Shown here: piece by piece, positions 119 through 58,181 of the stretch
How the letters are laid out: each line of letters opens with the position of its first letter
How positions within the stretch are numbered: the stretch's first letter is position 1
From: Candidatus Eiseniibacteriota bacterium
Lineage (GTDB): Bacteria; Eisenbacteria; RBG-16-71-46; CAIMUX01; VGJL01
NCBI GenBank assembly: GCA_963792585.1
Contig: CAWBWI010000001.1
Coordinates: 1,888,001-1,952,000, forward strand
Reading direction: 5' to 3'
Length of the DNA stretch: 64,000 nt
Position numbers and translations under genes: made by a program
The notes under the pieces: model-generated
Database searches by the model: none
What the model saw: only the letters and a program-made list of their open reading frames with translations
What the model was told of the DNA's origin: nothing

Positions 119-461
119 CCGTCAACCGGGAGAGCGCAGTTTCGTGAACCGTCCTTCCTGGGCATCGCTCATGCTGAGAGCGTCCACCACTGGTCGAGTA
201 GTGAATGTCCGGGAGAGAGTCTGGCCATGTCACGCGCCCGAATCAGAGGGTTCTCTCCGGTTACGCTCATACAGTTCGCAAACAGAGAATCGGCTCGTGT
301 AATTCACCCCTGCAACACGTTCGTGTTTCCGCACATGCGAAGAGCCCCGGCGGCATCAACCACCGAGGCTCCGTCAACGACTCTCGCCACGATAAGCTCG
401 TGGCTTGGATCAGTGGCTCCCCGCTCCTACCGCGAACCTGCAACCTTGTGATGAACGCTCC
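119..461. repeat. Dispersed non-coding repeat family R, copy 1
   Basis: Shares blocks GCAGTTTCGTGAA, CACCACT, GCAACAC-N6-GTTT and CACCGAGGCTCCGT with copies at 3349, 13089, 14828 and 57836; right end close to copy 5. Confidence 0.85.
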
Positions 462-498
462 GGGCACACCCGGGGCCAGGGACAGAGCGACGCGACAC

Positions 499-600
499 TG
501 TCGCGCTCGATACAGTTTCCTAGCAGAGAGTTCGCGTCGAGAATTCACCATCGCAACAGGCATGCGTTTCTATGGATAGAACGAACCCCGATGGCGAACG
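499..600. repeat. Repeat family R, partial tandem copy (central segment only)
   Basis: GTCGCGCTCGATACAGTT...CAGAGAGT...CGCAACAGGCATGCGTTTCTATGGATA...CCCCGATGGC aligns with ~3491-3588. Confidence 0.7.
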
Positions 601-672
601 CGCCAATCACCGCAGACGAGGCGGACCATCGGGCCCGCCTCGTCAGACTCACGCGCTCAGCGTCCTGCCGGA

Positions 673-1596
673 CTAGTCGTCGTGGTGCCCGTTGTCGTGA
701 TCATCGTCATGGCCGTCTTCGTGACCGTCGTCATGGCCGTGCCCATTCGTTGGCATGAACTCCAAGCCATGCGGGTTGCTCAGGGTGATGCCCGCGACTA
801 AGGTCTCCTCTCCCGTGAGCGGGTCCACACGCCAGAGCGGCGCATTCTCGATGATTTCGGTGACATAGAAGTTTCCATCATCGTCAATCGCCAGTCCCAT
901 CACGTTCGTCAGATGCTGAAAGGGGGTGACCAACTCGGCCTGGCCGGTCTGCAGGTTGATGCGGAAGAGCTTCCTAAACTTGGCCCCATACATCGTGCCG
1001 TCGGGATGCTGGGCCAGGTCCATGATGTTTCCGGCGGCGCCCGTGATGCCCACCTTCGTGGCCGCGCCGGTATGCAAATCGAACTGGTAGAGGCTGTTCT
1101 GGTCCGGTGTACCCGTGTCCGCATTCACTCCGTAGAGCTCGCCGTGGTGTGAAAAGCCGAGTCCCATGAATTGCTCCGGCGCCAAGTTGACCCCGAAAGG
1201 TGTGAGGTGACCCGTAGCACGGTTCACGCGGGACAGTTGCGGATCGGTAGTGGGGTCATCAAAGCCGTGCGTCACCGTGTAGATCTTGCCTTCAGGACTG
1301 ATAGCAAGGGCAAGGGTATTCCCGTGGTCCCCAAAGACTCCGATCGACGTCACAGTGCCGGCGTCGACATCGATTTTGATCAACTCTCCTGTGGGTCCGA
1401 ATCCGCTCGTCGAATACAGGATGGGTCCGGAGTGACCGTGGTGTTCGCGGAGTGCGGACGAAGTAGCGACATCGGTAGCAGAGTGGAGTCCGGGTCCTGT
1501 TGTGCTCTCGCGCTCGGTCGAGCAGCCACACACTGTGATCAGACAAGCGATCGTCAGGGCCGCGGCGACGCCCACAGGCCTCATGGTCTCTTTCAC
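673..1596 (-). CDS. Secreted/lipoprotein beta-propeller-like protein with His/Asp-rich C-terminal tail
   Basis: RBS GGAGG before GTG; signal peptide with Cys; repeated 'L(A/G)xxxxGxLY' blades; tail HGHDDGHEDGHDDDHDNGHHDD. Confidence 0.7.
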   Translation of the reverse strand: MKETMRPVGVAAALTIACLITVCGCSTERESTTGPGLHSATDVATSSALREHHGHSGPILYSTSGFGPTGELIKIDVDAGTVTSIGVFGDHGNTLALAISPEGKIYTVTHGFDDPTTDPQLSRVNRATGHLTPFGVNLAPEQFMGLGFSHHGELYGVNADTGTPDQNSLYQFDLHTGAATKVGITGAAGNIMDLAQHPDGTMYGAKFRKLFRINLQTGQAELVTPFQHLTNVMGLAIDDDGNFYVTEIIENAPLWRVDPLTGEETLVAGITLSNPHGLEFMPTNGHGHDDGHEDGHDDDHDNGHHDD

Positions 1597-3348: not shown

Positions 3349-3684
3349 GCGTCAACCAGGAGAACGCAGTTTCGTGAAGCGTCCTCTCTGGTACCCCGGA
3401 GCGAACCGCGTCGTTCACCACTCGGTGTGCAGAGAGAGCACCGGAGAGAGTTTCGTCCTCTTGGTCACCAGAAACGGAGGGTTCTCTCCGGTCGCGCTCG
3501 ATATAGTTCGCAAACAGAGAGTCTGCACGACGGAGGCACACGCGCAACACGCACGCGTTTCTGCGGATATCGACGAGCCCCGATGGCATCGACCACCGAG
3601 GCTCCGTTCACCACTCTCTGCCGCTTGCGTTCGTGGCTTGGATCACTGGATCCCCGGAGAGGACGGTCTACGAACGGTTCTCTC
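3349..3684. repeat. Repeat family R, copy 2
   Basis: GAGAACGCAGTTTCGTGAAGCGTCCTCTCTGGTACCCCGGAGCGAACCGCGTCGTTCACCACTCG identical to copy 3; weaker similarity to copy 5 extends left to ~3255. Confidence 0.9.
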
Positions 3685-3699
3685 AATTTGAGTAGCCAA

Positions 3700-4011
3700 G
3701 GCCCTCTCCCCGGTGCAACCGGATGACGGTCTCGGGTTGAACCATGGTCAGCGACTCCCGCCAACCGACCCAGAACCGGGACAACAGCACCCAGAGGAGG
3801 CGATCTAGCCTCCCGAGGCGCGGTCTCTTGGCTGTTGGTTGAAGGACCGCAAGTTGGTGCCGGAGGGCAAGGTTCTCCATGGCAAGGGCACGCTGCGACT
3901 GAAGGACGGCAATCAGGGTGCGTATGATGGTGAGGAGCATGCCAGGGAGCCTATCGTCAGACTGAGGCTAACTGCAAGCCGCGCAACGCGGACGGAGTTT
4001 TCAGAAGCCAC
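3700..4011 (-). pseudogene. Truncated IS (5' end and N-terminus of integrase-core transposase)
   Basis: ENLALRHQL...VQPETVIRLHR paralogous to the 10.6-11.9 kb IS; end TGTGGCTTCTGAAAACTCCGTCC; truncated next to repeat R copy 2. Confidence 0.85.
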
Positions 4012-8055: not shown

Positions 8056-10362
8056 TCACGGCACGACGATAATCCTCTTTGCTGCCGCGCGGTCGTTGAA
8101 GCGCAAGACCGCGTAGTAGACGCCGGCGGGTAATCGCCCGCTCCTGTCCCCGCGCCGCGAGTCGAATGTCACATCGTGCACGCCCTCGTCCATAATGGCG
8201 TCCACAAGACGTAGCACCCGACGACCTCCCACATCCATCAGATCCAGCGAAACACGTCCCCTTTGGGGAATCTCTAAGGTGATCCTCGCCGGGCCGCTAA
8301 CCGGGTTGGGATGAACGCCTCGCACAGCCAGCACCCACCGCAGGTGCCCCACATGGACGCGCAACATGCGAACCACTTCCGGAGCCGACCCGTCAGCGAT
8401 CATCTCCAGCCTGTACTCGTAGTCGTGGTTCGATTGAACGGCGGTGTCGACGATCTCGTAGGTCCCGTCCTGCGAGACCAGCGGCGCGCTCGTCAGCAGC
8501 TCACCGGCAGGTTGGTCCGCGGTCCCTTCCTCCGCTGATCGATAGACGTTGAAGCGGACGTTCCGCACGTCCAGCGGCATACTCCATCGAAGCCGTACGT
8601 CATGGTCCCGGACTTCGGCAGATGCATCCTCGATCCGGATTGGGGTCGGTTCGCCATCCCTCTTGATTGCCAGGTGCACGTCATGACCGGTCGCGAGCGC
8701 TACGAAATCCTGGTTCGGATGCGGTAGCGGCTGACCGAACCAGCCGCTCCCCCAAATGGCGAGCGTTCCGTCGGACCTGAGTCCGACGCTCTGCTCGTCC
8801 CCCGCCGCGATGGCAATGAACGGCCCCGGAGGAGCATCGCATTGGCCATACTCATTGGCTCCCCAACCCACCACGGAACCGTCGGACTCGAGTCCCAGGC
8901 TGTGCCGATAGCCCGCCGATATGGCGACGAAGCCTGTATTGGGCGCCGGCACGTCGCACTGGCCGTCATCGTCGATTCCCCAGGCGACGACCGTCCCGTT
9001 GGACTTCAGGCCAAGCGCGTGCATCGCGCCCCCAGAGACCGCTGTGAAGTCGGCGTTGGGCTCGGGGACGTCCAGGAGGCCATATTCGCCCCAACCCCAG
9101 ACGATGATCCTCCCGTCGGACTTCAGACCCAGGCTGTTGCACCCGCTCGCTGACACTGCCACGAAGTCGGAATTGGGCTCAGGGACATTGCACTGGCCAC
9201 AGGCGTTCTCCCCCCACGCCACGATCCTGCCGTCCGATTTCAGGCCGAGGCTTTGACCGCCTGTGTTCGCGGCGACAGCGACGAAGTCCGCGTTCGGCTC
9301 TGGGATGTCCAACTCGCCTTCTCCGTTGTACCCCCACGCCAGGATCGTCCCATCCGTCTTCAGCGCCAACGTGTGCCATTCACCTTTCGACACGGCGGCG
9401 CAGTCGGAATTGACCGGGGGAACATTGCGCTCGAATCGGCCGTTGGTTCCACCCCAGAGCACCATGGTTCCATCCGTCCTCATGCCGACGCTGAATCCGG
9501 CCCCCGCACTGATCGACAAGAAATCCCGATTGTCTGGTGGGTCCTCGTATCTCCAACCCCATACCTCGACCCTCCCATCCGACTTGAGTCCGAGGCTGTG
9601 ATAGGCCCCACAGGCAATTGCGACAAAGCCCGTGTTCGGCTCGGGGACATCGCACTCACCGTCGCCGTTACGGCCCCATGCGACAACCGAACCATCCGAT
9701 TTCAGGCCCATGCTGTGAAACATTCCCGCCGCAACGGCCACGAACCCTGTATTGGGGGACGGTACTTCACACTCATGCTCGAAGTTTTGCCCCCAGGCCA
9801 CGATGTTGCCGGTCGACTTCAGTCCAAGGACGTGGAAGCCTCCTGCCGCCACGGCAACGAAATCCTCGTTGGGCAAGGGGACATTGCACTGCCCGTAGTA
9901 ATTCGCGCCCCAGGCGACGATTCTGCCGTCCCGCTTCAAGCCCAGGCTGTAGCCCCATCCTCCTTCGAGCGCAGCGAAGTCCGTGTTGGGGAACGGAACA
10001 TTGCAGTCGGTGTATCCCCAGCAAACGATGCTCCCGTCGGGCTTCAAGGCGAGGCTGTGTGTCACCCCTGCGGACACGGCCACAGGAGCCGGGCTAATCT
10101 CCGGAGGAATGCATTGACCGAGCTCGTTATGGCCCCAGGCTACGACCCTTCCGTTTCTGATCGCCAGAACATGACTGTCACCAGCATCTACGGCCGATAG
10201 TCCTTCGAGTTGATCCTGTTCGACAGTGATGTTCTCGCCCCAGGCGATCAACGGCCGTTCGTATTGCGCTCGCGCAGTTCCCGCGATCCCCGATATGGCA
10301 ACGAGGCAAAGGGCCGCACAGATAGCGATGGACGTGACGCGTCTGGGCGAGCCGACTCTCAT
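8056..10362 (-). CDS. Secreted RCC1-repeat protein with C-terminal FlgD-Ig/T9SS-CTD-like domain
   Basis: Signal peptide; many HSLGLKSDGxxVAWG repeats; C-terminal PNP...LPAGVYY. Confidence 0.9.
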   Translation of the reverse strand: MRVGSPRRVTSIAICAALCLVAISGIAGTARAQYERPLIAWGENITVEQDQLEGLSAVDAGDSHVLAIRNGRVVAWGHNELGQCIPPEISPAPVAVSAGVTHSLALKPDGSIVCWGYTDCNVPFPNTDFAALEGGWGYSLGLKRDGRIVAWGANYYGQCNVPLPNEDFVAVAAGGFHVLGLKSTGNIVAWGQNFEHECEVPSPNTGFVAVAAGMFHSMGLKSDGSVVAWGRNGDGECDVPEPNTGFVAIACGAYHSLGLKSDGRVEVWGWRYEDPPDNRDFLSISAGAGFSVGMRTDGTMVLWGGTNGRFERNVPPVNSDCAAVSKGEWHTLALKTDGTILAWGYNGEGELDIPEPNADFVAVAANTGGQSLGLKSDGRIVAWGENACGQCNVPEPNSDFVAVSASGCNSLGLKSDGRIIVWGWGEYGLLDVPEPNADFTAVSGGAMHALGLKSNGTVVAWGIDDDGQCDVPAPNTGFVAISAGYRHSLGLESDGSVVGWGANEYGQCDAPPGPFIAIAAGDEQSVGLRSDGTLAIWGSGWFGQPLPHPNQDFVALATGHDVHLAIKRDGEPTPIRIEDASAEVRDHDVRLRWSMPLDVRNVRFNVYRSAEEGTADQPAGELLTSAPLVSQDGTYEIVDTAVQSNHDYEYRLEMIADGSAPEVVRMLRVHVGHLRWVLAVRGVHPNPVSGPARITLEIPQRGRVSLDLMDVGGRRVLRLVDAIMDEGVHDVTFDSRRGDRSGRLPAGVYYAVLRFNDRAAAKRIIVVP

Positions 10363-10484
10363 GGGTTCCTCCCCTGCTTCGCAAGTACCCGGTCCACGGC
10401 CGCACGGATCTCGCGCGCCTGATGATAACCGAGGGAAGGCAGGGGTGCCATTGGCAACTTCAGCCGCTCCGAGTGGCCGCCGTC

Positions 10485-10609
10485 TCATCTCTCCAGCACT
10501 ACCCGCCCGGTCGTCGTGCCTTGCCCCGTCGTCACGTGCGTGAAGTACACGCCCGCTGGAAGCTCGCGGTATGAGTCGTCCTTGCCATCCCACTTCAGCG
10601 AGTAGTCCT
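10485..10609 (-). pseudogene. Detached FlgD-Ig C-terminal fragment, probably the 3' end of the IS-disrupted LVIVD gene
   Basis: DYSLKWDGKDDSYRELPAGVYFTHVTTGQGTTTGRVVLER*; paralogue of ~26387-26510; abuts the IS end. Confidence 0.75.
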
Positions 10610-11875
10610 GTCCCTTCCATTAACTTCGTCCGGCCGTTCCTCCGAGAACGAGCGACCCCTCCACCGGCTTATTGAAGCGTGCGCCACCAATCGTACGCCG
10701 CCGGAAGCGTTGGGACCAGACTTCCTTCGGCCGGACGGTCAATACGCTTCTCGAGCTTCCGGAGAGTCCGGATCCAACGAAGATCACGCCGCGCGTCGGA
10801 AGTACCGGTGATGGAGCCCACCTGCCATCGGCTCCTCGAGAACCGGCCCCAAGTCGGGTAGCTCGATCCCCCGCGGAACCGGGCAGTCCTTCTCCAGGCC
10901 GAGATGGGTGCGCGATCCGTGGTAGTACTCGATGTAGCTCCTGAGCACGCGCCGTAGGTGTCTCTCGCTGAAGACGATCACATGATCGAGGCACTCCCTC
11001 CGGATCGATCCGATCACCCGCTCGACGTACGGGTTCTGCCACGGTGAGCGGGCCGAGATCGGCACCTCCTCGATCCCCATGCCCACGACACGTCCTACGA
11101 ACTCGTTCCCGTAGATCCCGTCCCGGTCTCGGATCAGGTATCGCGGGGCTGTCTCCCAAGGGAACGCCTCAATGATCTGCTGCCCCGTCCAGGCTGCACT
11201 CGGGTTCGTCGTCACGTTGAAGTGGATGATCCGTCTCCGGTGGTTGCTCAGAATGAGGAACACGAAGAGCACCCGAAACGTGGCCGTCGGCACCGTGAAG
11301 AAGTCGATCGAGACGATCTCCTGCGCGTGGTTCTCCAAGAACGTCCGCCAGTTCTGTGATGGCGGCTTCCTATTGCGAACCATGTACTTCGAGACGCCGG
11401 CCTGACTGATCTCGATGCCGAGTTTCAGCAGTTCCCCATGGATCCGCGGAGCACCCCAGAGTGCATTCGCCACCGACATCTGCCGGATGAGATCGCGAAC
11501 TTCTCCGGCGACCCTGGGCCTTCCCGATGCCTTCGATCGGCTCTTCCACCTCCAGTAAAGTCGGAACCCTTCCCGGTGCCATCGGATGACCGTCTCGGGT
11601 TGGACGATGGTCAGCGACTCCCGCCAGCCAGCCCAGAACCGGGACAGCAGCATCCAAAGGAGGCGATCTGCTCTTCCTGAGGCGCGGTTTCTTGGCAGTT
11701 CGTTGGAGGACATTGAGTTGGTGGCGAAGCGCGAGGTTCTCGATGGCGAGAGCGCGTTGCGATTGAAAGATGGAAACCAGGGTGTGGAGCAAGGTGAGAA
11801 GCATGGCAGCAAGCCTATCGATGTGATCGGCTAACCGCAACAGGACCAATGAGGACGAGGTTTACAGGAGGCACC
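10610..11875 (-). mobile_element. Insertion sequence with DDE integrase-core transposase (IS3/IS481-related); +1 frameshift near 11675
   Basis: SIDFFTVPT, LIRDRDG, SPWQNPYVERVIGSIRRECLDH; imperfect terminal IRs TGTCCCTTCCATTAACTTCGTCC / GGTGCCTCCTGTAAACCTCGTCC; N-terminus lies in another frame. Confidence 0.88.
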
Positions 11876-12947: not shown

Positions 12948-13088
12948 GGCCAGTCCCTCCCTTCGATCTGCCACCAAAGCACAGTCAATTCAGCACGGAG
13001 AGATGCGCGGGATGAGTTTAGGGGATCCTGACGCTCGGATCCATGGCGGATTTCGTAAACCCTTGCTCTGCACGCCACGCTCGCCCCA

Positions 13089-31450: not shown

Positions 31451-31526
31451 AAGGCTGCCGTCATGGATCCCGTGAAACGACTTGATCCGTGCACCGAGAG
31501 CGCCACCCTTGTGTCGAGGAGGTGAT

Positions 31527-45047: not shown

Positions 45048-45102
45048 GCTTCCTCCGTGACCCGGCGCTGCTTCAGATGTTCGTGGGGGTTGCGCTCAGG
45101 CG

Positions 45103-45192: not shown

Positions 45193-45395
45193 GTCTGATC
45201 GCGGTGCGTTCACCGCCTGAGTTCAGTTTCTACACGTGCACCGATGCTCCGTCAACTACGAACTTTCCAACGCGCCGAGATCACCGTGCGGACGATCGTG
45301 AAGTGCATGGCGGCGAGCCTATCAACAGTCGGACGCTAGCTACAACTCGGGCAATACGGCGGCGGATTGTACGAGGCACACCTGTTAGGCATTTG

Positions 45396-46580: not shown

Positions 46581-46757
46581 CTTGGGTATCGCCTCCTCTG
46601 CTGACCAGTCCCGACGTTCCCATCACCTGCGGACTGAACCCGGTGCGGCCCGGCCAGCCTCGCGTGATGGTCTTGCGTTCTATGCTTCTCTCCCAGGACC
46701 GTGACGGGCCAGCGCCGGAGGTGGATCCGGCGGTTCGACTGCATACGGCGCATATTC

Positions 46758-47348
46758 CTACTCGTTTCCTCCTGCTTCGGACTGACCGTCAAGGTAAGCA
46801 CCTATTCCAGCCTGTATCCCGTCGAGGATGCGGGCACCACAAGCGAAGAGCTCGGAGAACCTTCTGACATTGACAAGCTTCATGTCGGATGGGAGCGATT
46901 GTAGCCCTGACCGATCTACGGGGTACCTGAAGGAGAAGGACCCGGAGTCCAACTCCCCGATTTGAGCAACAATCGAATCAAGCTCGAAGAGTTCGGCGGG
47001 ATCGCCGGTAGGCCAGACCCTCAGGACAAGGGGGCGAAGTTCTCGCCAAAGCTCAGATACATCATGGTGACGGTGCTGCTTCTCAGGAACCTTCAGCAAG
47101 GCCTGCGCATCAAGCAGGGTACGTTTTAGTTGCAGTTCGAGGTAGTGGCGGGAAAGAAACACGATCGGGTAGAGGAGAATGTCAAGGTCGCCGCTATTCT
47201 CCTCTGCGTAGCTCGTAAGGACTTCTGCAGCACGAGAGTAGCCGCTGATGTATGGACCCCACTGATCATGCGTGAACTGCAGGCATGCATTGTGCTCCCA
47301 ATCGACGTCCAGTCGGAACAACCGCATGTCATCGCCCATTTCAGGCAC
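46758..47348 (-). CDS. Cassette: hypothetical protein, possibly HEPN-like
   Basis: YPIVFLSRHYLELQLK, HDVSELW, SFSFRYP. Confidence 0.65.
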   Translation of the reverse strand: MPEMGDDMRLFRLDVDWEHNACLQFTHDQWGPYISGYSRAAEVLTSYAEENSGDLDILLYPIVFLSRHYLELQLKRTLLDAQALLKVPEKQHRHHDVSELWRELRPLVLRVWPTGDPAELFELDSIVAQIGELDSGSFSFRYPVDRSGLQSLPSDMKLVNVRRFSELFACGARILDGIQAGIGAYLDGQSEAGGNE

Positions 47349-47491
47349 GGGGCAGCCTCCTGGTCAGGCGAACGTTCGGATCACCTGCGTCCCGATGCCG
47401 GCGCGGCTCCGGCAGCCCGAGGTGATGGACTTGCCTGCTATGCTCGTCCGCCGGTGCCGTGACGGCCCGTCGCGTCAGGTGGGGGCAGCAG

Positions 47492-48223
47492 TTATGTCGT
47501 GGGCATTGCACGTGCAGCCTCGCGATCATCGACGACGCGCAGCAAGTGACTGGCGAGTTGCAGCAGTTCAACGGCTTGCGCAGGGTCGGTGATCGAAACA
47601 CGACGATGGCTTCCTGGGTTCTTGAAGCGTCCGATTGCTCCGGCGAAGAGATCCTGGAGGGCTTGCCGTTCGGCAGCAGGCTCGGATTGCTCCGAAAGTG
47701 GCCCTGACTGGGCATTGAAAGCCCTTCGCATCAGGTCCACGCCGAGAACTGTTGCGTCATAGCCGCCGACCTCGCGCACGCGAACCTCTACAAGCTTGAA
47801 GGACTGAAAGACAGCGGACTCGTAATCGCCAAGTAGAAACGTCGGATAGGCACGCTCCAAAATGAGGGCATGGATCGAGGATTTTGGAAACACGGAGGCG
47901 TATTGGAAACTCTTGTAGTCGTTCTCGGTACGAAGCTGCTCACCTCGGCGCGTTATGAAGAACCAACCGTTGGTGGCGTCGTCAGGATGAGGCGCGATTA
48001 GTACCTCGCGTTCGAGGTGGGCCCAGGCTTCCATTAGAGCCAGTTGAATGCGCACCTGATGCGTGGGCGGATATCCGAGCTGCCCAGCTTCGATGGCGAA
48101 GTTGTGGCGGTTGAACTTGCTACTACGTGAGTGAATGAGCCAGCGAAGGACATATCCTGCTAATTCCTCTGGTGGAAGGGCCAGCAAGTCCTCGGGGTCT
48201 GGAACGAGTTGTCTCAAGTCCAT
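47492..48223 (-). CDS. Cassette: TIGR02391 family protein
   Basis: FKLVEVRVRE, GVDLMRRAF, GAIGRFKNPGSH; TAA stop lies in the attC R'' box. Confidence 0.88.
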   Translation of the reverse strand: MDLRQLVPDPEDLLALPPEELAGYVLRWLIHSRSSKFNRHNFAIEAGQLGYPPTHQVRIQLALMEAWAHLEREVLIAPHPDDATNGWFFITRRGEQLRTENDYKSFQYASVFPKSSIHALILERAYPTFLLGDYESAVFQSFKLVEVRVREVGGYDATVLGVDLMRRAFNAQSGPLSEQSEPAAERQALQDLFAGAIGRFKNPGSHRRVSITDPAQAVELLQLASHLLRVVDDREAARAMPTT

Positions 48224-48377
48224 TGGTGTTACCATATTCTGTTCGAATCCCCCGCGTCCTGACCCCGGCACGGCCCCAGCTGCCCGTCACACTGATCCCG
48301 CCTTTCATGCTCCCCTGCCGGGGCCGTGACGGGCCAGCGCGAGAGGTGGGGGCGGCCGTTGGATTGATCGATCCCTT

Positions 48378-48929
48378 TCATAGGATCCCTGACCACAAAG
48401 CGATCCACGATTTCAGGGGTTCCGCTTTGTTCTCGAAGTGATCATAGACAAGCCACTCATCATCTCGACCCTCGAGCCGCCCCCAAACGATGCGTTGATA
48501 GAGTCCCAAGTACTCGCGCTCAGCCCAATCCAATCCCGGCTTGTCGGACGCGGGGAAGAGAGCCACATGCCGCGCTGTTTGGGCCCCATCCGCAAGGCCG
48601 AGTTCCCATGGAATCCACCGACTGTCCACCGTGTTGGGAGTGAGAAAGAGAACAAAGCGGGAACACTCCTTGATGGTGCTCTTTAGAATTTCCGCTGTCT
48701 TCGGAGAAGGTTCTTTCGGAAGCCGGAGATCGAAAGCATCAACGTAAACCGATGCTCCATGACTCTCCAAAATCTCGATCACCCCGCCAAGGTGTAGGAG
48801 GTCCTGTGCCGAGTGGGAGAGAAATAGAGATTTCCCAGCCGCAGATCGGGAGGCCTCCGTATACGCCTTTGCGACGTCGATCCGCGCGCCTTGTTGGCGA
48901 AGCTCGTCGAATGTTGCGTACCGTGGCAT
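48378..48929 (-). CDS. Cassette: TIR-domain protein
   Basis: LFLSHS, VYVD, SRWIPWELG with catalytic Glu. Confidence 0.88.
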   Translation of the reverse strand: MPRYATFDELRQQGARIDVAKAYTEASRSAAGKSLFLSHSAQDLLHLGGVIEILESHGASVYVDAFDLRLPKEPSPKTAEILKSTIKECSRFVLFLTPNTVDSRWIPWELGLADGAQTARHVALFPASDKPGLDWAEREYLGLYQRIVWGRLEGRDDEWLVYDHFENKAEPLKSWIALWSGIL

Positions 48930-49084
48930 GTTCGCCTACTTCATCCTAAAATGCACCTGCGGCCTGAGCCCGGCGCACCCCTTGCCCCCCATCGCGCCGC
49001 TCCGGCCTTCCATGCTTCTCTGCCGGGGCCTTGACGGCCCAGCGCGTCAGGTGAATGCGGCAGTTGGACCACGACACCATGGAG

Positions 49085-49948
49085 CTATCTCCTGCTGGCC
49101 TGTCGGTTGAGTAAGGCGAGCATGCTGTCGGCACCCACCGCAATGCGCTCAACGGTTCCGTCCTTTGTGAGAGCGACACCAAGAGGGATTCCATGTCGGT
49201 ATACTCGGAAACGCTGCGCTAGCTCACCGAGCCAGCCTCCTCCCCAATACTGCTCACCCGGGGGGCGTTCCTGCGCCAGCCAGGTAGGGAGGGTATGGCA
49301 CTCAGCGTCTAGGTTTATGCCGATCACGCGGACTCCTTGCAGGTTGACCGCCAACGATGGCGACTGATTCAGCCTGGCGATGAAGCGTTTGCATGGGCCG
49401 CACCAACTGGCCCAGAAATAGATGAATTTTGGACGCTCAGCACTGAGGGAAAGTCGAAGATCTGCGCAGGCGGGAGAGGAGACCTGTGCTGCAGTGGCTG
49501 TTTCTCCGACGAGCCAGGGATCGAGCTCCAGCAAAGGAACGACCTGATAGCCTGTCGAATCCGGGTTGAGGACATATCTCGTGTCTGCGCCTGCGGCAAT
49601 GTCAGCCATTCGCATGCGTTGGACGACGACAGCGAGTTGGAGCGATTCGCGCCCGATGGTGACGCGAACCGTGGATGGCTTCGACGAGAGAAGGTACCCG
49701 AGCACGCGATCCAGTGGCCACCCTCGGACCGAGAGACCATCAAGTGCAAGCAGAGAGTCTCCGGGAAGCATGCCCGCTCGATCAGCAGGACCGTTGGGAA
49801 TGGGTCGAAGCACAATGACGCCCGTGGTGCTGTCCGCTTGTCCGAGAACCGCGCCGATCCCGAAACGGTCAGGGGTGAAGTCCTCAGCCACAGCGGACTT
49901 CGAAGAGACTGCCAGTAGAGCAGCCACCCATAGCATCAGAGTCGCCAT
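49085..49948 (-). CDS. Cassette: secreted PDZ plus thioredoxin-like (TlpA) protein
   Basis: GIG...GPADRAGMLPGD; FWASWCGPC. Confidence 0.85.
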   Translation of the reverse strand: MATLMLWVAALLAVSSKSAVAEDFTPDRFGIGAVLGQADSTTGVIVLRPIPNGPADRAGMLPGDSLLALDGLSVRGWPLDRVLGYLLSSKPSTVRVTIGRESLQLAVVVQRMRMADIAAGADTRYVLNPDSTGYQVVPLLELDPWLVGETATAAQVSSPACADLRLSLSAERPKFIYFWASWCGPCKRFIARLNQSPSLAVNLQGVRVIGINLDAECHTLPTWLAQERPPGEQYWGGGWLGELAQRFRVYRHGIPLGVALTKDGTVERIAVGADSMLALLNRQASRR

Positions 49949-50124
49949 CCTCAAACCAGACGGAAGCAAACAGAGCCAGCGGCTCAAAGCTGGGCCAACG
50001 TTCGCGTCACCTGCGGGCGATGACCGGCGCGGACCTGGCAGCCCGGGGTGATGGTCTTGCCTTCCAGTACTTCTCTGCAGGGCCGTGACGGCCCAGCGCG
50101 GGAAGTGAAGCCGGCAGCTAGCCA

Positions 50125-50967
50125 TCAGTGAATACAGCCTAACCATAGCCGACCGAGTGCAGACTCCACCGCCTGGCGCAGCGGGGCTTCGGATTCAGGA
50201 GCAATCTGCACGCCCCAGCCTAGCAGAACGGGGTTTTGGCAAAAGTCGATCGGGTCATCTCTCAGCGGGTCCAGGACGACGGGATCACATCGCGGATCGT
50301 ATGATTGGCCGTTGCAGACTACTGGTCGCGTAAGAAGGGCGTAACGCAGAGACATGAGCAGGGACCAGCTCAAAGTGGCCTCGGTGCCCTCCTCGTACCC
50401 GGTGTCGGGCCCACCAATATCGACCATCTTGTTGTCTCCAGTAAGAGACTCTTTGATGATCTGGCCAAAGCAATGGGCCACTGCGTCGGCGACTTGGATG
50501 CCGACGCGGACACGGGAGTCCGCACCCGCATCTATTCGACTCTCCGCCAAGTAAGAGAACAGGCATCGCAGCCTCGCCGCCTCGGCGGACGACGAGAAGA
50601 TGCCCTGGTCGAAGACGAGAGCCGTGTTGGACGGGTCGATCCCATTGCGAACGAATGTGGATTGCACAGCCTGCAAGGCCTGTCGGCCTAGACGCGCCCG
50701 ACTGAAAGGCCCAAAGAAGACTGCCACGCTGGCGCGGCTGGCGGCGAGCCCCAGTAGGCGGCTTCTTGCGTCACGCATGCGCGGGTCGGAATCCATGCGA
50801 GCGCCACTCTTGAACTCTTCTCGTGGTGGGTCTAGGCCCGCTTCCCTCAATGCAAGTGTCACACGATCTTCAAACTCATCATCGGCGAAAACGAAAGCGG
50901 TGACAACGACGCCTAGTGAGTCGTAGATGCTCTCGTCTACAAAGCATTGAGTAGCGTTGGGCTTCAT
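50125..50967 (-). CDS. Cassette: DUF3800-like protein
   Basis: FVDES, EFK, GIQVAD motifs. Confidence 0.75.
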   Translation of the reverse strand: MKPNATQCFVDESIYDSLGVVVTAFVFADDEFEDRVTLALREAGLDPPREEFKSGARMDSDPRMRDARSRLLGLAASRASVAVFFGPFSRARLGRQALQAVQSTFVRNGIDPSNTALVFDQGIFSSSAEAARLRCLFSYLAESRIDAGADSRVRVGIQVADAVAHCFGQIIKESLTGDNKMVDIGGPDTGYEEGTEATLSWSLLMSLRYALLTRPVVCNGQSYDPRCDPVVLDPLRDDPIDFCQNPVLLGWGVQIAPESEAPLRQAVESALGRLWLGCIH

Positions 50968-51133
50968 CTTACCTCTGCTGCCATAAGGTTGCCCTTCGAG
51001 TCGCCTTCGGACCAAGCCGCGCGCAGCCCGGGGCGATGATCTTGCCCCATCCGGCATCCTACCGAGGCCGGGACGGCCCAGCGCGTCAGGTGAATGCGAC
51101 TGTTGGCCGGGTCTTTCGTCGCGGAGGTCGGCG

Positions 51134-51355
51134 TCAATCCCGCTTCTCCTCAAGGTGAACCCCGCAGGTCTCCAACGCAGCTATGCGGCGACGGAGATCA
51201 CCGATCCGCAAGTCATTGCGCTCATGCAGGCCCGTGACCAACATGAGAAGCCCAGCGACGCTGCCGACGACATTTGTCCGGAAGCCGCAGAAAATGACCA
51301 TCCCGACACCGAGGACAATCAACACCGTGGAGATCGGCCACATGACACGGTTCAT
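51134..51355 (-). CDS. Cassette: small two-TM membrane protein
   Basis: RBS AGGAGG; two hydrophobic helices; lies between attC sites. Confidence 0.7.
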   Translation of the reverse strand: MNRVMWPISTVLIVLGVGMVIFCGFRTNVVGSVAGLLMLVTGLHERNDLRIGDLRRRIAALETCGVHLEEKRD

Positions 51356-51500
51356 TTTCTCCTCCTAGGTTCGTCCAAGGTTCACGACCTCCTGCGCCTC
51401 GGCCATCCCATCGCGCCGCTCCCGCCTTCCATGCCGCTCTGCCAGGGCCGTGACGGCCCAGCGCGGGAGGTGGGGGCGGCTGCTATAGATCATCCGGACC

Positions 51501-51989
51501 TCAGTCGCCCAGACCGCCCATGCCAGAAAACGCACGACCAATGATGTAGATGATCGTGGCGTCGACGACCAACCCTATCCCAAACCCAATCAGAACGACA
51601 TGAGGTGAAGATTTCATCTCCACCCACTCCACCCGCGTCGATGGAATTGAATGTGACTGCCAGCCCGTGCGAAGCAGCACCGCTTCATGGCTGGAACTGT
51701 CGGGCGACTCTGTGGGAATGGCGAGAAGCCTAGAGAATCCCTGGAATCGTCCGGTTACGGCCAACGTGTCGCGCTGTTTGATGATCACTGGCGCGCCCGG
51801 TTCTACTCGGTCCAATGATCTTACATCGCCTCTAGTTTTCCTATCCCTTGCAGCCTCATGCATATGCGCGACACTCGCACCGATCAAGGAGCAGCCGGAG
51901 TTCCCTGAAGCAAGACCGAACACCGGGAGTAGGACTGCCAGCCGCGAGATGCACCGGACTCTGCTGCCGACGGAGTCGATCGTCCGCAT
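51501..51989 (-). CDS. Cassette: hypothetical lipoprotein/membrane protein
   Basis: SGC lipobox-like motif; C-terminal TM. Confidence 0.6.
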   Translation of the reverse strand: MRTIDSVGSRVRCISRLAVLLPVFGLASGNSGCSLIGASVAHMHEAARDRKTRGDVRSLDRVEPGAPVIIKQRDTLAVTGRFQGFSRLLAIPTESPDSSSHEAVLLRTGWQSHSIPSTRVEWVEMKSSPHVVLIGFGIGLVVDATIIYIIGRAFSGMGGLGD

Positions 51990-52222
51990 GACGGTTGCGT
52001 GACCTGCAACCCGAGGTTGCCGCATCCCTGGCAGCCCGAGGCGATAATCAGACTTTCTATGCTCCCCTGTCAGGGCCGTGATGGCCCAGCGCGTCAGGTG
52101 AATGCAGTAGTTACACAGCACGATGCGTACGCCCTCCGATGCGCCCCGTTACTTTGGGGCGCTGTAGGCGGTTTGCCACCTATTCGTGAGCTGATAGGTT
52201 AGAATCGGTCCTCCAACAAGTG

Positions 52223-52696
52223 TCAGTACTGAGAAGATCGCCACATCGCGACCGCTCGGGGAGTCGAAGCAGGGACCGTCGCAAACCTGGGTCGGCTCCT
52301 TTTCGCCAAAACCGCGACCGCCACGGAGCCGAGCACAATGCCCACTGGGATCCCGACGCCAAAGATCGCGAGCTTCGAAGGTGGGCGCTTCGTCCGGACT
52401 GCTATCAGTTGAGCGTCAGTCCGAATAGGCGACTCAGGCCAGATGGTGAGCAGGGATTCCGAGAGCTGCCATGTTCGTGGACGGTGCGAGAACTCCGACT
52501 TGAGACCACCGGCCTCGGAGAGGAATCGCAGTTCAAGGTGCTTTGCGTCACAGATCTTGTTCTGTGCAGTCTGCCCGATGCCTGAGAGCCGGTACGTCTG
52601 ACAGCGCGTGGAGTCAACTCCCGCAGTGTCCTTGGCCATTGCCTCCGAGGCACCGGCAGTAAGAAGAATCGAGATCCCCATGAACGCAAGCGTCAT
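52223..52696 (-). CDS. Cassette: hypothetical exported/membrane-anchored protein
   Basis: Signal peptide and C-terminal TM; lies between attC sites. Confidence 0.55.
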   Translation of the reverse strand: MTLAFMGISILLTAGASEAMAKDTAGVDSTRCQTYRLSGIGQTAQNKICDAKHLELRFLSEAGGLKSEFSHRPRTWQLSESLLTIWPESPIRTDAQLIAVRTKRPPSKLAIFGVGIPVGIVLGSVAVAVLAKRSRPRFATVPASTPRAVAMWRSSQY

Positions 52697-52838
52697 GAAT
52701 GTGGCGATAGTCGGTGTAGCGATTGCATCAGCCGCGCGCTGACCCCGGCGCGGCCATGGCAGCCCGGGGTGATGGTCCGAGCTTCTATGCTTCTCTTCCA
52801 GGGCCGTGATGGGCCAGCGCGGGAGGGGGATGCGGCAG

Positions 52839-53603
52839 TCAGACCCGCGTCGTTGTATCGTCATCAGGTTGCTCCGGCTCGAACTTGAACACGTTTGATC
52901 CGATCGTGTGACCCGACTCCCGACTCAACTGGACCTTCTCAAGAAACCGCCCGAGAGCCCTCGGACCGAAGGTCTTCATCCGGTGAATCTCCTGCGGTGA
53001 GAAGAGAGGTTCAGATAGAAGTGGGTCTGCGTATCCAGGGGGAAACCGAAGGAAACGGTAGAGGACGGCGATTGAGCGTGTGTCCAGTGGGGCTCTTGTG
53101 TTTCTTCCCCAGGCGAAGACATCGTCGGGATGCTCAGCAAAGTAGGTTTCCGGGAAGCCGTCGTCACTAGGTTGGAGAAGGCTGTGGAATCGTAACCTCC
53201 AGTCAATGAGCCTCTCCTCGTACACTCTTCGGTGGCTGGTTTCGAGGATCTCCTTGCTCAGTGCCTCGGATGCCTTCAAGAAGCGAGCCGCTGCAATCCA
53301 GTTCTCCCTGCGATTCGGAGGGGACGTTGACGCATCGCCTTGCGTGAGCACTTGGAATGCCCGTTCGAGGAGCTCCAGGCAATTGTCGAGGTAGTCTCGG
53401 GATCGAGCTCTGGCCAGGTTGAGAAGCAACGCTACAAGGGCGACACAGGCACCCGAGAGGACACCAAGGCCACCGAGGAGTGGCAGAACATCAGGAAGCC
53501 CAGCTCCCCCAGCGAACATGAAGATGACTAACGCAAGGATGAGCAGTCCAGCGAGCGCCAAAACGACGGTAGAGCCCCAAAGAAAACGTGAGAGCGTTTT
53601 CAT
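52839..53603 (-). CDS. Cassette: hypothetical protein with two N-terminal TM helices
   Basis: Fills the attC interval; TGA stop lies in the R'' box. Confidence 0.75.
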   Translation of the reverse strand: MKTLSRFLWGSTVVLALAGLLILALVIFMFAGGAGLPDVLPLLGGLGVLSGACVALVALLLNLARARSRDYLDNCLELLERAFQVLTQGDASTSPPNRRENWIAAARFLKASEALSKEILETSHRRVYEERLIDWRLRFHSLLQPSDDGFPETYFAEHPDDVFAWGRNTRAPLDTRSIAVLYRFLRFPPGYADPLLSEPLFSPQEIHRMKTFGPRALGRFLEKVQLSRESGHTIGSNVFKFEPEQPDDDTTTRV

Positions 53604-53833
53604 GTCAATCTGACGTTTGCCTCCCCCGACTTCGATGACGGGCGCGGCCCTGGCAGCCCGGGGCGATGGTCTAGGATTGCGGGGGGAGAGAAGGCTTGTC
53701 CAGCCCACTCGGGGCCGGACCGGAGCTCGAATCGGCTTGGCCACACGCGGCTCATCCTTCGTCCTCGCCTGGCTGGGTTATCTCGTTCGAGGTGGACACC
53801 TCGGGCACGCACGGAGTCGGGCCAGGCGCATCT

Positions 53834-53916: not shown

Positions 53917-56034
53917 TCAACGGCCGAGGATGACTATTCTCCCCGTCCGGACCACTCCGGCTGTGAGCATGCGGACGAGGTAGACGCCTGCTGGGAGGGG
54001 TCGCCCGCTGCCATCGCTACCGTCCCAATCGACTGAATGCCGTCCTGCAGAGTGAGGCCCGAGCGAGAATCGGCGCACCACGCGGCCAGTGGCGTCGTAG
54101 ACTTCGAGATCAACGCCTGTCGCGGCCCGCGGCAGTTCATAGGTGAGAAGAGCAGGACCACCGCTCGGGTTGGGGGACGCGCTGACCGGCGAACCGGCCG
54201 CATCCTCTCCGGGCTCGCCGGCGAGGGCCAGCCTGCCCGGACAAGGGCCCCTCATCTCCGATGGGGGCGGAGCCACTATGGTGACATCTCGGGAGACCGC
54301 ATAGCTCCCGTTCCAGACGCTCGCGGCTATGGCCACGAAGTCGCCGTTCGGCTCCGGAATGTTGCACTCGCCTCGATCATTCGATCCCCACGCCACCATC
54401 GATCCGTCCACCATCAGACCGAGGCTGTGAGCACCTCCGCCAGCGATTGCCGTGAAGTGCGCGTTCGGCTCCGGAATGTCACATTGCCCATCGCTGTTAC
54501 TCCCCCATGCTACAATCGATCCATCCGCCTTTAGACCGAGGCTGTGGCCGCCTCCACCTGTGACCGCGATGAACCCGGTGTTCGGGGCCGGTACGTTGCA
54601 CTGACCCACCGAATTCTCCCCCCAGGCGATGATCGATCCGTTCCTCCTCAAGGCCAGGCTGTGCCACGCGCCTGCCGCGATCGCGATGAAGTCCTGGCTG
54701 GAATCCGGCACGTCGCACTGATGGAAGACATTGTTGCCCCATGCAAAGACGCGTCCATCCGACGTCAAACCCAGGCTGTGATCCTCGCCGGCATCGACGG
54801 CGACGAACCCCGTGTTGGGAGCAGGTGGATTGCATTGGTGATTGTAGTTGTACCCCCATCCGATGATCGAGCTATCGGACCGGATGGCGAGGCTATGATC
54901 TCCGCCCGCCGCAATTCCGATCGGGTCGTGCAGACCTTGTGGCACGTTGCACTGACCGTAGCCATTGTCACCCCAGGCGACGACCGTCCCATCGCGGCGA
55001 ACGCCGAGGCAGTGAGATCCGTGGCCCGTTACTGTCCGAAAGCCGGAGTTGGGAGCGGGCACGCGGTGACCCCAACCGGCTCCACCCCATGCCATAATCG
55101 ATCCGGGGGCGCGGGGTGCGCAGGTTGCCGAGAGGCAATCCGTCCCGATTCCCTGCCAGATCCCCGGCGAGTCGCATTCGGCGATCGTCGTCATCGTGCA
55201 GCTCCCGTCCGGAGAGCAGCACGCGCCGTCCGTGCAGGTGTTGAGGTCGCACGCAATTCCGGTCCCCTGCCACGCACCTCCCTGGTCGCTGCACTCGGTC
55301 TCGCTGATGATCCTGCACAGTCCGTGTTGGAGGCAGCATGCCCCTCCGGCATTGGTCAGGGGCCCGGAGAACTCCTGGCTTGCATCATATGCGACCCCAT
55401 CATCACCGAACGTCCAATCCGGATAGCCGAAGTAGGCGCTCCGGAACATGCTGTCGCATTCCTTGACGCTGACGGCCGCAAGCCGCCCTGCCTGGGGCGG
55501 GAAGCCGTGGTCGCGGAACTGCGCGCAGAACCAGTAGCGGACGCCGGGGACGAAGGTCAGCTCGACGGGGACGCTCCACTCGTAAACCGGGTACCATCCG
55601 CCCTGACAGCCTACGAACTCCTCGCGATAATCCGTGACCACGAAGCTCGCGATCAGCTCGCCAGGTCTGCAATTCGCATCCTCGAAGAACTCGAAATTGA
55701 AACCTGGCGTCGGGATCCCCGGATCGCACGCAACGGAGTTGTTATAGTAGCCGCCCCAGAACGTAACGCGTGTCACCAGACTGTCGCTCAAGATGAAGTC
55801 GTTGGCGATCTCCGTCTCGAGCCCAAACTGCAGGATCTGCTCGCTCGAGCCGATCAATCCCCATAGATCGGGAGGATCGGACCAGAGGACGTTTCGGGCT
55901 TCCCTCGCGAGTGGATGCGGCACCCCCAATCCAGGATGGAAAGGGGAAAGCGGTGGTTGGTTCGCCGGTCCCTTTGCAGAAGTCCCGCCGACAACTGCGA
56001 CGATCAGTAGCAACGCGAGTCCGATGGATTTCAC
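53917..56034 (-). CDS. Secreted protein: N-terminal beta-sandwich-like region, two Cys-rich repeats, RCC1 repeats, FlgD-Ig domain
   Basis: Signal peptide; GACC repeats; HSLGL..WG; WDGSDGSGRPLPAGVY. Confidence 0.9.
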   Translation of the reverse strand: MKSIGLALLLIVAVVGGTSAKGPANQPPLSPFHPGLGVPHPLAREARNVLWSDPPDLWGLIGSSEQILQFGLETEIANDFILSDSLVTRVTFWGGYYNNSVACDPGIPTPGFNFEFFEDANCRPGELIASFVVTDYREEFVGCQGGWYPVYEWSVPVELTFVPGVRYWFCAQFRDHGFPPQAGRLAAVSVKECDSMFRSAYFGYPDWTFGDDGVAYDASQEFSGPLTNAGGACCLQHGLCRIISETECSDQGGAWQGTGIACDLNTCTDGACCSPDGSCTMTTIAECDSPGIWQGIGTDCLSATCAPRAPGSIMAWGGAGWGHRVPAPNSGFRTVTGHGSHCLGVRRDGTVVAWGDNGYGQCNVPQGLHDPIGIAAGGDHSLAIRSDSSIIGWGYNYNHQCNPPAPNTGFVAVDAGEDHSLGLTSDGRVFAWGNNVFHQCDVPDSSQDFIAIAAGAWHSLALRRNGSIIAWGENSVGQCNVPAPNTGFIAVTGGGGHSLGLKADGSIVAWGSNSDGQCDIPEPNAHFTAIAGGGAHSLGLMVDGSMVAWGSNDRGECNIPEPNGDFVAIAASVWNGSYAVSRDVTIVAPPPSEMRGPCPGRLALAGEPGEDAAGSPVSASPNPSGGPALLTYELPRAATGVDLEVYDATGRVVRRFSLGPHSAGRHSVDWDGSDGSGRPLPAGVYLVRMLTAGVVRTGRIVILGR

Positions 56035-56191
56035 TTGCAGGCCTCCTTCGGGGGTCTCGGGAACTCAATCCCTCGCACGATCGCGATTCCGCCTTGGATA
56101 TCGGCCGGGGGTATGGCTGCATCGACCACGCCGATCGTCTGGCGGATCGGCATGTGGAAGCAAGCAAGACGGCCTATCGCTCTCCCTAGCA

Positions 56192-57490
56192 TCACCGGAA
56201 GCTGCTCTTGATCCGCCCCCAGGTGGTCGGCTGAACCGGCGTCGGCTCGCACGGATTCGGGTCGCAGGTGGTGCCGTTCCCCATGTAGTTTCCTCCCTGC
56301 TCGCCGCACGCTGACTGTCCAAGGACGAGGCACGATCCATCCACGAAGCAGCACGCGCCAGTCGGTGGCGTTCCGCAGCCTTGGCCCCGGGCACCGATCA
56401 GGCCGCAGTCGACGCCGTCAGGGTGGTTGCCAGGGAGACACGGCGACTGGCCGTCCAGGGTGTAGCCATCGTTCGCGGCATCGCAGAAGAGCGGGTCGGC
56501 CGAGATGTTGCCGCCAAGGTCATTGCCACAGACTGCGTTTCCGGTGGTATTCCCGTAGAAGTCACAGCAGCGGACCGTGACTGTTCCAGAACACTCCAAA
56601 GCCGAACCCTCGTGGAAGGCGATGATGATCCTGTTGAGGCCGATGTTCGAATCGATGATGGAAACCGCAGCGTTCTCACTCGTAAGCGCGTTTCTTGCCA
56701 CCGTACAGCCCGAGATCGTACCGGAGCTGAGCACGACAGTGAGACTGGTGATGCCGCCCCACCAATCGTTCCGGTTGTCGACGAACAGACAGTCCTCGAT
56801 GGTCAGCGCGGGCGTATGGACGAGGAGTCCCGCAGGATTACCGAATCCTGCGATGTTCCTGGCGAAGACGCAGCGCAGGATGGTCACCTCCGGCCCATCC
56901 GCCCACATCGCCAACCTGTCGTTGTCAGTGACGACGGTGTCGGTCATGGTGAGCCTGCATCCGCTTGGAGCCCAGATCCCCCCTCCTTGATAGGCCGTGC
57001 AGTTCCGAACCGTGCATCCCTCAATCAAAATCGTTGAGTTCTGGACAAGGATGCCGCCTCCGCTTGCGCTCGCGCTGCAGTCCTCGATGAGGCAGTCACG
57101 GATTGTCATCCGGGAGTCGCGGCACCGGAGTCCTCCTCCCTCTCGATCCTCGTACTCACCCGACTCGACCAATCCATGAACGATCCTGAATCCCTCGATG
57201 ATCGCATCCTGTTGGAGGCCAGCCGAATCGAATCCCCGACCGGCTGACGCTGCATCGACGGTCGTGGCTTCTGCCCCTTGCTCGCTGTGAACCCAGATCC
57301 CGGCCTTCATGACGATATCGTGCTCGAGATACTCCCCCGGCGCGACCAGCACATCATCTCCTGCTGAAGCCGCGTTGATCCCTGCCTGGATGGTGGGAGC
57401 ATCCCCCGGAACGTGCCAGGTGGCTCCGGCAGCGGGAACCGTGATCACGAGCGTGAGACACATGCAGGGCAGGGTCGGTAAGCGTTTCAT
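56192..57490 (-). CDS. Secreted right-handed beta-helix protein with Cys-rich repeat and C-terminal TTWGRIK tail
   Basis: VPGDAPTIQAGI, GGG repeats, DPLFC, GACC...CDPNPC, PTTWGRIKSSFR. Confidence 0.88.
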   Translation of the reverse strand: MKRLPTLPCMCLTLVITVPAAGATWHVPGDAPTIQAGINAASAGDDVLVAPGEYLEHDIVMKAGIWVHSEQGAEATTVDAASAGRGFDSAGLQQDAIIEGFRIVHGLVESGEYEDREGGGLRCRDSRMTIRDCLIEDCSASASGGGILVQNSTILIEGCTVRNCTAYQGGGIWAPSGCRLTMTDTVVTDNDRLAMWADGPEVTILRCVFARNIAGFGNPAGLLVHTPALTIEDCLFVDNRNDWWGGITSLTVVLSSGTISGCTVARNALTSENAAVSIIDSNIGLNRIIIAFHEGSALECSGTVTVRCCDFYGNTTGNAVCGNDLGGNISADPLFCDAANDGYTLDGQSPCLPGNHPDGVDCGLIGARGQGCGTPPTGACCFVDGSCLVLGQSACGEQGGNYMGNGTTCDPNPCEPTPVQPTTWGRIKSSFR

Positions 57491-57835
57491 CTGAGTCCTC
57501 CCAGGGAGGTACATTCCGCGAAAACCCCTTCGTCCGCACAGATTCGCGCCGTTCTCATGATACGCTCGACAGCCTCATTGGAACACTTCTATCGGCTCGG
57601 CTAATCTTCCACCGGACGGTCGTCAGCGATATCGTGCTCCCCCTTGCCGCGTAAGCAGTGGGGTGCTCCCGCGGCCTGCGAGTCCGGTCGGGCAAAAGCT
57701 GGTGGGTCATCACCAGCCGCGACCCTCGTCTGTGTCCGGCATCCCCACCTTCGCTCGCCTTGGGGTAGTCCGCGACCCCGTCCCCTGCAATCCCCGCGCG
57801 CCTGCACCCACGCCCGGCATGTCGCGATCGCATGG

Positions 57836-58181
57836 GCGTTCACCATGAGAACGCAGTTTCGTGAAGCGTGCGCTCTGGTACCCCGGAGCGAACCGCGTCG
57901 TTCACCACTGCGGGGGAGAGAATCAAGAAGGAGAGAGTTTCGGCCTCTCACGCCCCGTTTCGTGGCGGTTCCCACCGGTTGCACTCGACACACTTTCGAA
58001 ATAGAGAATCAGCTTCGCGGCGACGTCGTCGCAACACGCTCGCGTTTCTGCGGATATAGACGAGCCCCGATGGCATACACCACCGAGGCTCCGTCAACCG
58101 CTCTCGGCACGATAAGCTCGTAGCCTGGTTGTCTGGCTCCCCGCTCCTACCGCGAACCTGGACCCTTCCGGTGAACGCTCC
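57836..58181. repeat. Repeat family R, copy 5, at the border of the accessory region
   Basis: Left block as in copies 2 and 3, right end as in copy 1; inverted termini GCGTTCACC-N9-CAG(T/G)TTCG(T/C)G. Confidence 0.9.

Follow-up and report, generated by a model that had tools for sequence, protein, structure and literature searches.

The repeat that punctuates a 64,000-nt stretch of the Candidatus Eiseniibacteriota genome (GenBank assembly GCA_963792585.1, contig CAWBWI010000001.1, positions 1,888,001 to 1,952,000; hereafter the window) is, with good confidence, the left end of a family of islands that carry genes for a DUF2924 protein and a large serine recombinase (LSR) and that are located at the 3' end of tRNA-Asn(GTT) in related genomes. 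As judged from the DNA sequence, this end would consist of an attachment (att) junction followed by a leader of about 300 bp, and such ends are stacked in arrays. A full copy comprises a left arm, a central GA dinucleotide, a right arm, a hairpin, and a further part of about 200 bp in which motifs recur and additional half-sites occur. In the following, G000 denotes the genome under study and C1, C3, C4, and C6 its contigs, with the window on C1; other G numbers are genomes of relatives, and L numbers are loci, including metagenome loci. The copies in the window are:

119-461, minus strand: copy 1, a degenerate tRNA-Asn-like arm (B*, 420-461) joined to the element leader; core GA at 419-418.
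342-371, minus strand: terminator-like hairpin of copy 1, about 45 nt behind the core and at the same position in every full copy; putative terminator.
499-600, minus strand: internal, coreless leader fragment.
3349-3687, minus strand: copy 2, a P-P' (element-element) junction; core GA at 3652-3651, in the variant GA-TCCA; P arm at 3653-3687.
13089-13351, minus strand: copy 3, a coreless remnant of the leader, fused to a stop codon, that of the gene at 13348-14685, which encodes a FlgD-tail protein.
14828-15151, minus strand: copy 4, a P-P' junction; core GA at 15118-15117; right boundary of a 43-kb LSR-bearing module.
57836-58181, minus strand: copy 5, the array head; B* arm at 58140-58181, core GA at 58139-58138, then the leader; borders the PBP1A gene.

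An earlier, sequence-only reading had described five co-oriented intergenic copies and the piece at 499-600, all of which were recovered here. The five copies are 63-83% identical in pairwise comparisons and score E values of 1e-75 to 1e-105 against a profile made from these same copies. Several details of that reading also held. The motif CGT(T/C)(C/A)ACC recurs inside the repeats (12 of 18 plus-strand occurrences in the window; four more lie on the minus strand), the central dyad GCAACAC..GTTTCTGC is exact in four of the five copies, the right end is an imperfect inversion of the left one in copies 2 and 4, and housekeeping genes do resume at the last copy, next to the PBP1A gene. The proposed accessory secreted-protein neighbours were found in part, but other copies lie next to genes for an AraC protein, an insertion sequence (IS) fragment, and a glycosyltransferase. 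With nhmmer, the profile gave 27 matches in the genome, far more than the window holds, in clusters on C1, C3, and C4 that are grouped at C1 204-312 kb, in the window, and at C4 255-294 kb. The cargo genes are co-oriented, and nearly all copies lie on the opposite strand. The crossover core is absent from copy 3 and from the 499-600 piece, and about half of all G000 copies are coreless fragments. Between cores, the modules of the window measure 43, 11.5, and 3.2 kb, and only the 43-kb module has a recombinase; over all arrays of the genome, modules between intact junctions range from 1.4 to 43 kb.

In the metagenome loci L040 and L043, an intact tRNA-Asn(GTT) passes directly into the repeat when the minus strand is read. 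Relatives were scanned with a sequence-only model made from 18 copies, which matched in 27 of 35 genomes of the order and in 46 of 151 genomes sampled from the phylum; kin genomes are not independent in these and all following counts over relatives, which takes weight from our interpretation. Of the 28 best loci scanned, 12 have an intact tRNA-Asn at the head of the repeat. The end formerly taken as the right one therefore corresponds to the acceptor end of the tRNA, GGGGAGCCA, and the remainder of the repeat is what follows the tRNA.

The gene order in intact loci is tRNA-Asn, repeat, a short extra leader, a small conserved open reading frame (ORF), the DUF2924 gene, and the LSR gene. In all four intact relatives the linked LSR contains Resolvase, Recombinase, and Zn-ribbon domains, and its relatives in the PDB are the TP901-1 and A118 integrases. 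A co-oriented LSR gene follows within 14 kb in seven of ten tRNA-headed stretches that were fetched. Starting from the recombinase instead, 21 of 46 LSR loci (from 25 other genomes) have a co-oriented repeat within 15 kb upstream, seven of them at a distance of 0.79-0.94 kb, and two of the 46 show only another geometry relative to the repeat; of the 25 loci outside the 21, nine belong to a single genome without a repeat match, and several lie near a contig start. Recurring backbone genes in relatives encode a 140-aa protein, a gpA-type terminase ATPase, and a small tyrosine recombinase. At least about 590 stretches of viral contigs match the DUF2924-linked LSR family. Among the 80 such viral loci listed, many of which have too little upstream DNA to tell, a co-oriented tRNA-Asn lies upstream in six and a tRNA-Gln(TTG) with the same GGAGCCA end in two. 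At L121 and L123, the same LSR family and leader stand behind a tRNA-Gln(TTG) with this acceptor end, and an internal GTTGAC replaces GTTAAC. The exact repeat pattern had no matches in viral contigs, and BLASTN of copy 2 against plasmids and phages gave none. Pattern matches at L022, L026, L027, L030, and L037 extended over only about 30-50 nt, were taken as chance, and were dropped.

The likely crossover, predicted from sequence comparisons, is the GA of GGG-GA-GCCA, at what had been called the right end. Two flank swaps point to this position. The junction at C3:1227115 and L038 are near-identical over 200 nt up to GGGGAGCCA and unrelated beyond it, and the tRNA junction of G017 and an internal junction of G009 are unrelated before the core but highly similar over roughly 300 nt behind it. 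A further 19 pairs with the same right and another left side, which are not independent, were listed. We then measured the distance of a GTTCG-like motif in the left arms from the centre of the GA. Among 90 distinct heads, 76 have a core; of these, 33 have the motif at 18 nt from the centre, 29 at 13 nt, and 14 at neither distance. The 13-nt class is made up of 12 intact tRNA-Asn genes, in which the motif is the T loop, and 17 B* arms, in which ARAGORN finds no tRNA. In serine integrases, the motif for the zinc ribbon is 5 bp nearer to the centre in attB than in attP (Rutherford et al., PMC3783163); the 13/18-nt spacing matches this shift. By analogy, the GTTCG-like motif would be bound by the zinc-ribbon domain (ZD). 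Scanning with a P-arm matrix gave nine sites in G000, whereas a shuffled contig yielded none. One of the nine is 1.4 kb behind the tRNA-Asn gene of the genome on C3, with one gene in between, and our assumption that this tRNA gene is an empty site was therefore wrong.

These observations can be joined in a simple scheme. An excised circle (P-P') would integrate at the tRNA-Asn end, and later circles would enter the same or a downstream junction, so that junctions stack between cargo blocks, most of them recombinase-less. The P-P' junctions of copies 2 and 4 would be joints between two elements. The B*-P' junctions of copies 1 and 5 would pair the leader with a degenerate, element-borne tRNA 3' half of attB-type spacing and head arrays at non-tRNA sites. 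Since the 300-bp leaders are 63-83% alike, they are likely to be substrates of homologous recombination as well, which would explain mosaic copies, coreless remnants, and duplicated exported-protein genes that start inside the repeat. Hence, the earlier proposal of a recombination platform for capture or shuffling outside integrons survives in that the site bounds accessory modules, whereas the enzyme, the site, and the analogy have to be replaced: the evidence points to the LSR instead of XerC/D or the tyrosine recombinase encoded at 31482-32111, and the modules are a stack of 1.4-43-kb islands instead of single-gene units as in pdif modules.

The arrays of the window stand away from the tRNA gene, the window being on C1 and tRNA-Asn on C3. 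The B* arms share 21-29 of 40 positions with the native tRNA, and their mean match to it is 20.9/34, versus 13.1 for P arms. Compared with one another, they agree at a mean of 28/40 positions, also across families, and they share derived changes while the DNA further left is unrelated. This argues that B* arms are copies carried by the element and not chance chromosomal sites. B* junctions begin both LSR modules of G000 as well as those of L215 and L216, and several B* arms follow housekeeping genes. A search for conserved sequence upstream of B* arms, or for a shared arm at the far end, gave nothing beyond one pair in G003. At C3:573624 (minus strand), a weak repeat is preceded by a different degenerate tRNA-Asn 3' half; a second fragment lies at C3:569256. 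Anchoring of the island at C1:204k at a nearby tRNA-Gln(CTG) was rejected, as the 3' end differs. Quite tentatively, and with more doubt than confidence, B* could be a portable, element-borne attB: it would plant landing pads at which the DUF2924-LSR system loads and swaps modules for exported (FlgD-tail) proteins, as an integron-like, self-seeding platform by which this order diversifies its secretome, and DUF2924 or the small ORF would be an undescribed directionality factor permitting reuse of P-P' and B*-P' junctions.

Three gene units are duplicated and start in or just behind a repeat. Window positions 56192-58145 correspond to C1:302394-304348 with 94.6% identity (99.4% over the 500 nt behind the repeat), window positions 11874-13115 to C4:292434-293667, and C1:264782-266766 to C1:313880-315871. 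In the first unit, identity rises mid-repeat and fades in a shared C-terminal tail, breakpoints that fit homologous recombination and not recombination at the core. The C-terminal tails common to paralogues of exported proteins are likely to be second recombination substrates. A swap at the core in a near strain is suggested by a 388-nt contig from sequencing run X3, in which the body of copy 1 (129-442, 5 differences) is joined to the left arm of the C4:293932 junction. The join spans a 24-nt stretch common to both junctions, core included, and the bodies of the two junctions are 61% alike. No circles were found in the sequencing runs, which contain at most 0.18 of the words of the stretch, and most joints in run X5 stem from other copies of the repeat.

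A number of results weigh against assigning the repeat to an LSR island system, or at least against its present activity. The motif in the right arms is mostly at 17 nt, not 18. For the distal attR (P-GA-native B') there was no clean case; P-GA junctions with other right arms occurred, none of which could be recognised as native B'. Canonical serine integrases do not recombine attP with attL (PMC3783163). In three of the ten tRNA-headed stretches a co-oriented LSR was not found: one has an LSR gene in the opposite orientation on the next stretch, and in two none was seen. Copy 5 and its counterpart at C1:302k are near-identical from mid-repeat on, not from the core. The X3 contig is single, has a depth of 3.3, and is unconfirmed from the C4 side. 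Both LSR genes of G000 are frameshifted in the assembly; together with the many coreless copies, this means that the arrays may largely be relics.

In line with some of these points, the repeats here could mainly be dead relics of old LSR islands, spread by homologous recombination and duplication and at most serving as leaders or promoters of exported-protein genes, with site-specific shuffling having stopped. We consider this a serious possibility that falls slightly short of even. The frameshifted LSRs, the many coreless fragments, the duplicated units that break mid-repeat and in the homologous C-terminal tail, and the IS elements that cut or interrupt repeats (L028, copy 2) speak for it. 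However, core and 13/18-nt spacing persist in all 10 listed full-length G000 copies of the cored type, a swap at the core is suggested by the X3 contig, and other genes of the assembly are frameshifted too, so that sequencing error is possible. The question of relics is about present activity, not origin, and is compatible with descent from DUF2924-LSR islands.

A second recombinase has to be considered for the integration itself. A gene for a small tyrosine recombinase is part of the element, tyrosine integrases typically target tRNA genes (PMC10654092), and tRNA sites are treated as the domain of this class (PMC13626063); these points, too, count against an LSR. The tyrosine recombinase (31482-32111, or one acting in trans) might integrate the islands at tRNA-Asn, with B* arms as displaced halves from crossovers in the anticodon loop and the 300 bp as arm-type sites. 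The gene travels with the element, and the homology of B* arms to tRNA-Asn begins at the anticodon stem. But the flank swaps end at the 9-bp core of the acceptor end and not in the anticodon loop, the 13/18-nt spacing is a trait of serine integrases, the repeat is followed by the LSR operon and not by the tyrosine recombinase, and the latter is a 209-aa protein with the catalytic domain only. We therefore regard this explanation as improbable. The left limit of B* at the anticodon stem nevertheless leaves room for a second recombinase, and the tyrosine recombinase may be the source of this boundary.

The sequence-only reading had placed a core of two 11-nt arms and a 6-nt spacer at the left end of the repeat and had compared one arm with the XerD arm of dif. 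Aligning the 18 copies did not bear this out. Pairing between the arms is limited to 1-6 of 11 positions (15 of 18 rows could be scored), and agreement with the quoted XerD arm, over the 18 rows, to 3-7 of 11. Modules bounded by pdif sites, in which recombination sites outside integrons enclose accessory modules, are alike as non-integron module boundaries, but the present repeats have no 11-6-11 XerC/XerD site and belong to a different enzyme class. The best argument for XerC/D, one arm of copy 4 that matches at 7/11, is met by these poor scores and by flank swaps that map to the other end of the repeat, and we give an XerC/D system next to no credence. A search of the genome for dif-like arms gave two weak candidates, both unrelated to the repeat. 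The supposed left-end core is represented in copy 2 by:

3363-3392, minus strand: extra P-type half-site, inverted relative to the real P arm.

This extra half-site scores in seven of the 18 aligned copies and is visible by eye in all remaining ones. Its centre varies, which makes it an unlikely crossover. In intact elements it stands directly before a TATGTA-like box and the recombinase operon, suggesting an accessory or operator site.

Consensus folding gave a single conserved structure in the leader, a hairpin of 13 pairs that lies some 45 nt behind the core and is preserved in 94.9% of cells. Its pairing is maintained by G-U changes on one side, on the tRNA strand, and two-sided covariation is seen in one of 13 pairs, the same as in shuffles (246/500). 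The hairpin could be a terminator that the island supplies behind the restored tRNA. Imperfectly inverted ends, the number of copies, and this one conserved hairpin would also be expected of a non-autonomous miniature inverted-repeat transposable element (MITE) or a large structured noncoding RNA (ncRNA). However, there is no target duplication (the longest flanking direct repeat within +-8 nt is 3-5 nt), breakpoints lie inside the unit, the Rfam gathering scan of the window gave no matches, the hairpin lacks covariation above shuffles, and no long-range structure is supported. Both are highly unlikely, if somewhat less so than XerC/D. A coding function was dismissed: 14 frames are open in 108 frame-rows, but the length from anchor to anchor varies modulo 3 over the 18 copies, leaving no conserved frame.

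The LSR-type module of the window extends from 31.5 to 45.3 kb. Its LSR gene is found 13.8 kb inward of copy 5, with 12.7 kb of cargo separating copy 5 from the recombinase operon. These and other features of the window are:

3683-3940, minus strand: N-terminal fragment of an rve_3 (IS3/IS481-like) transposase gene, ending at the P arm of copy 2.
31482-32111, plus strand: small tyrosine recombinase, catalytic domain only, 209 aa; distal part of the element.
32122-36198, minus strand: backbone genes for a gpA-type terminase ATPase, a terminase-small-subunit-like protein, a ParB-like protein, and a D12 adenine methylase.
42791-44373, minus strand: LSR gene, frameshifted in the assembly, with Resolvase and Zn-ribbon matches in separate frames.
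44370-45260, minus strand: frameshifted DUF2924 gene, small conserved upstream ORF (starting at 45047), and an inner leader piece, which is the part following the repeat in intact elements.
46600-53760, minus strand: cargo, located between the recombinase operon and copy 5; holds ten attC-like repeats along with short genes.

The terminase, ParB, and methylase genes recur in relatives and may form a transfer module like that of phage satellites; a capsid gene near 32122-36198 was not recognised by Pfam. Four 32-nt tandem ATGCCGCC repeats at 31310-31444, just upstream of the small tyrosine recombinase gene, may be binding sites. The short genes of the cargo encode two Hypoth_Ymh proteins, a TIR_2 protein, a PDZ/thioredoxin protein, and others. 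The same attC-like repeat has 42 matches behind the integron integrase gene at C6:619076 and three in the other LSR island (C1 260-280 kb), which indicates that integron cassettes travel as island cargo. The 340-bp repeat itself was discarded as the attC of an IntI-linked array, because the IntI of the genome is followed by a different repeat family. P arms that abut truncated rve_3 transposase genes were seen repeatedly, with the C-terminal tail of the transposase at metagenome loci L036, L039, and L042 and the N-terminal part at copy 2. Four loci, L090:9774 (minus strand), L089:12681, L083:14699, and L084:5859, have P arms joined to other conserved right arms, one of them in opposite orientation, and other module types may use the same core. 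At L028:3249-5071, the repeat is split at model position ~171-186 by a transposase gene, which we take to be IS110-like from its motif. Exported proteins are encoded at 8056-10620, 24642-26495, 53917-56034, and 11862-12977; three are RCC1-repeat proteins and one is an LVIVD-repeat protein, and two have Pfam FlgD tails. Such FlgD-type tails are presumably typical of Eisenbacteria-like lineages.

The att sites of the A118/LI integrase of Listeria (PMC3783163) resemble those proposed here in domain order, in a short core with a central dinucleotide, and in the 5-bp shift of the distal motif. They differ from the present, predicted sites in that here the target is a tRNA 3' end, P-P' junctions occur in the chromosome, a conserved 300-bp leader carries extra half-sites, and DUF2924 is a partner. 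Similar in organisation are the ssrA islands of Dehalococcoides with DsiB (PMC3146451), serine-recombinase islands that form tandem stacks at the 3' end of a gene for a stable RNA; many of them have no integration module, and their backbone includes ParB-like and methylase genes. Unlike these, the islands described here use tRNA-Asn (or tRNA-Gln TTG in two viral contigs) instead of ssrA, their recombinase gene starts 0.8-0.9 kb inside the element without overlap with the att site, and their arrays also occur away from the target, behind arms that mimic a tRNA. Staphylococcal cassette chromosomes (SCC, SCCmec) and the Enterococcus cassette chromosome (PMC6222049) are likewise LSR-driven composite islands with internal att sites, variable cargo, and recombinase-less modules. 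But the recombinase here is not a Ccr protein (104-158 bits versus cut-offs of 700-900; CcrB 158 versus 900), the target is not rlmH, and DUF2924 and terminase-like genes replace the SCC backbone. The arrays follow the logic of SCC and ssrA islands, and the copies here may be inactive. New features are the family with DUF2924, the length of the leader, and the arms that mimic a tRNA at places away from one.

In a literature search, to which att databases and supplementary att tables did not belong, we found no description of DUF2924-linked LSRs or of a serine integrase at tRNA-Asn; excerpts of PMC8627217 and PMC12884075 are silent on the latter, and an atlas search with DUF2924 returned only DUF2924 clusters. 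For the DUF2924-linked serine recombinases, a widespread and undescribed family, our analysis names both a target, the tRNA-Asn 3' end, and predicted att sites. It is not usually serine integrases that target tRNA genes, and an enzyme of this class directed to a near-universal tRNA end would make a useful integration tool. The stacked P-P' junctions and the tRNA-mimic arms raise the question of relaxed directionality, and the arrays point to a way in which the many exported proteins of this lineage are gathered and reshuffled.

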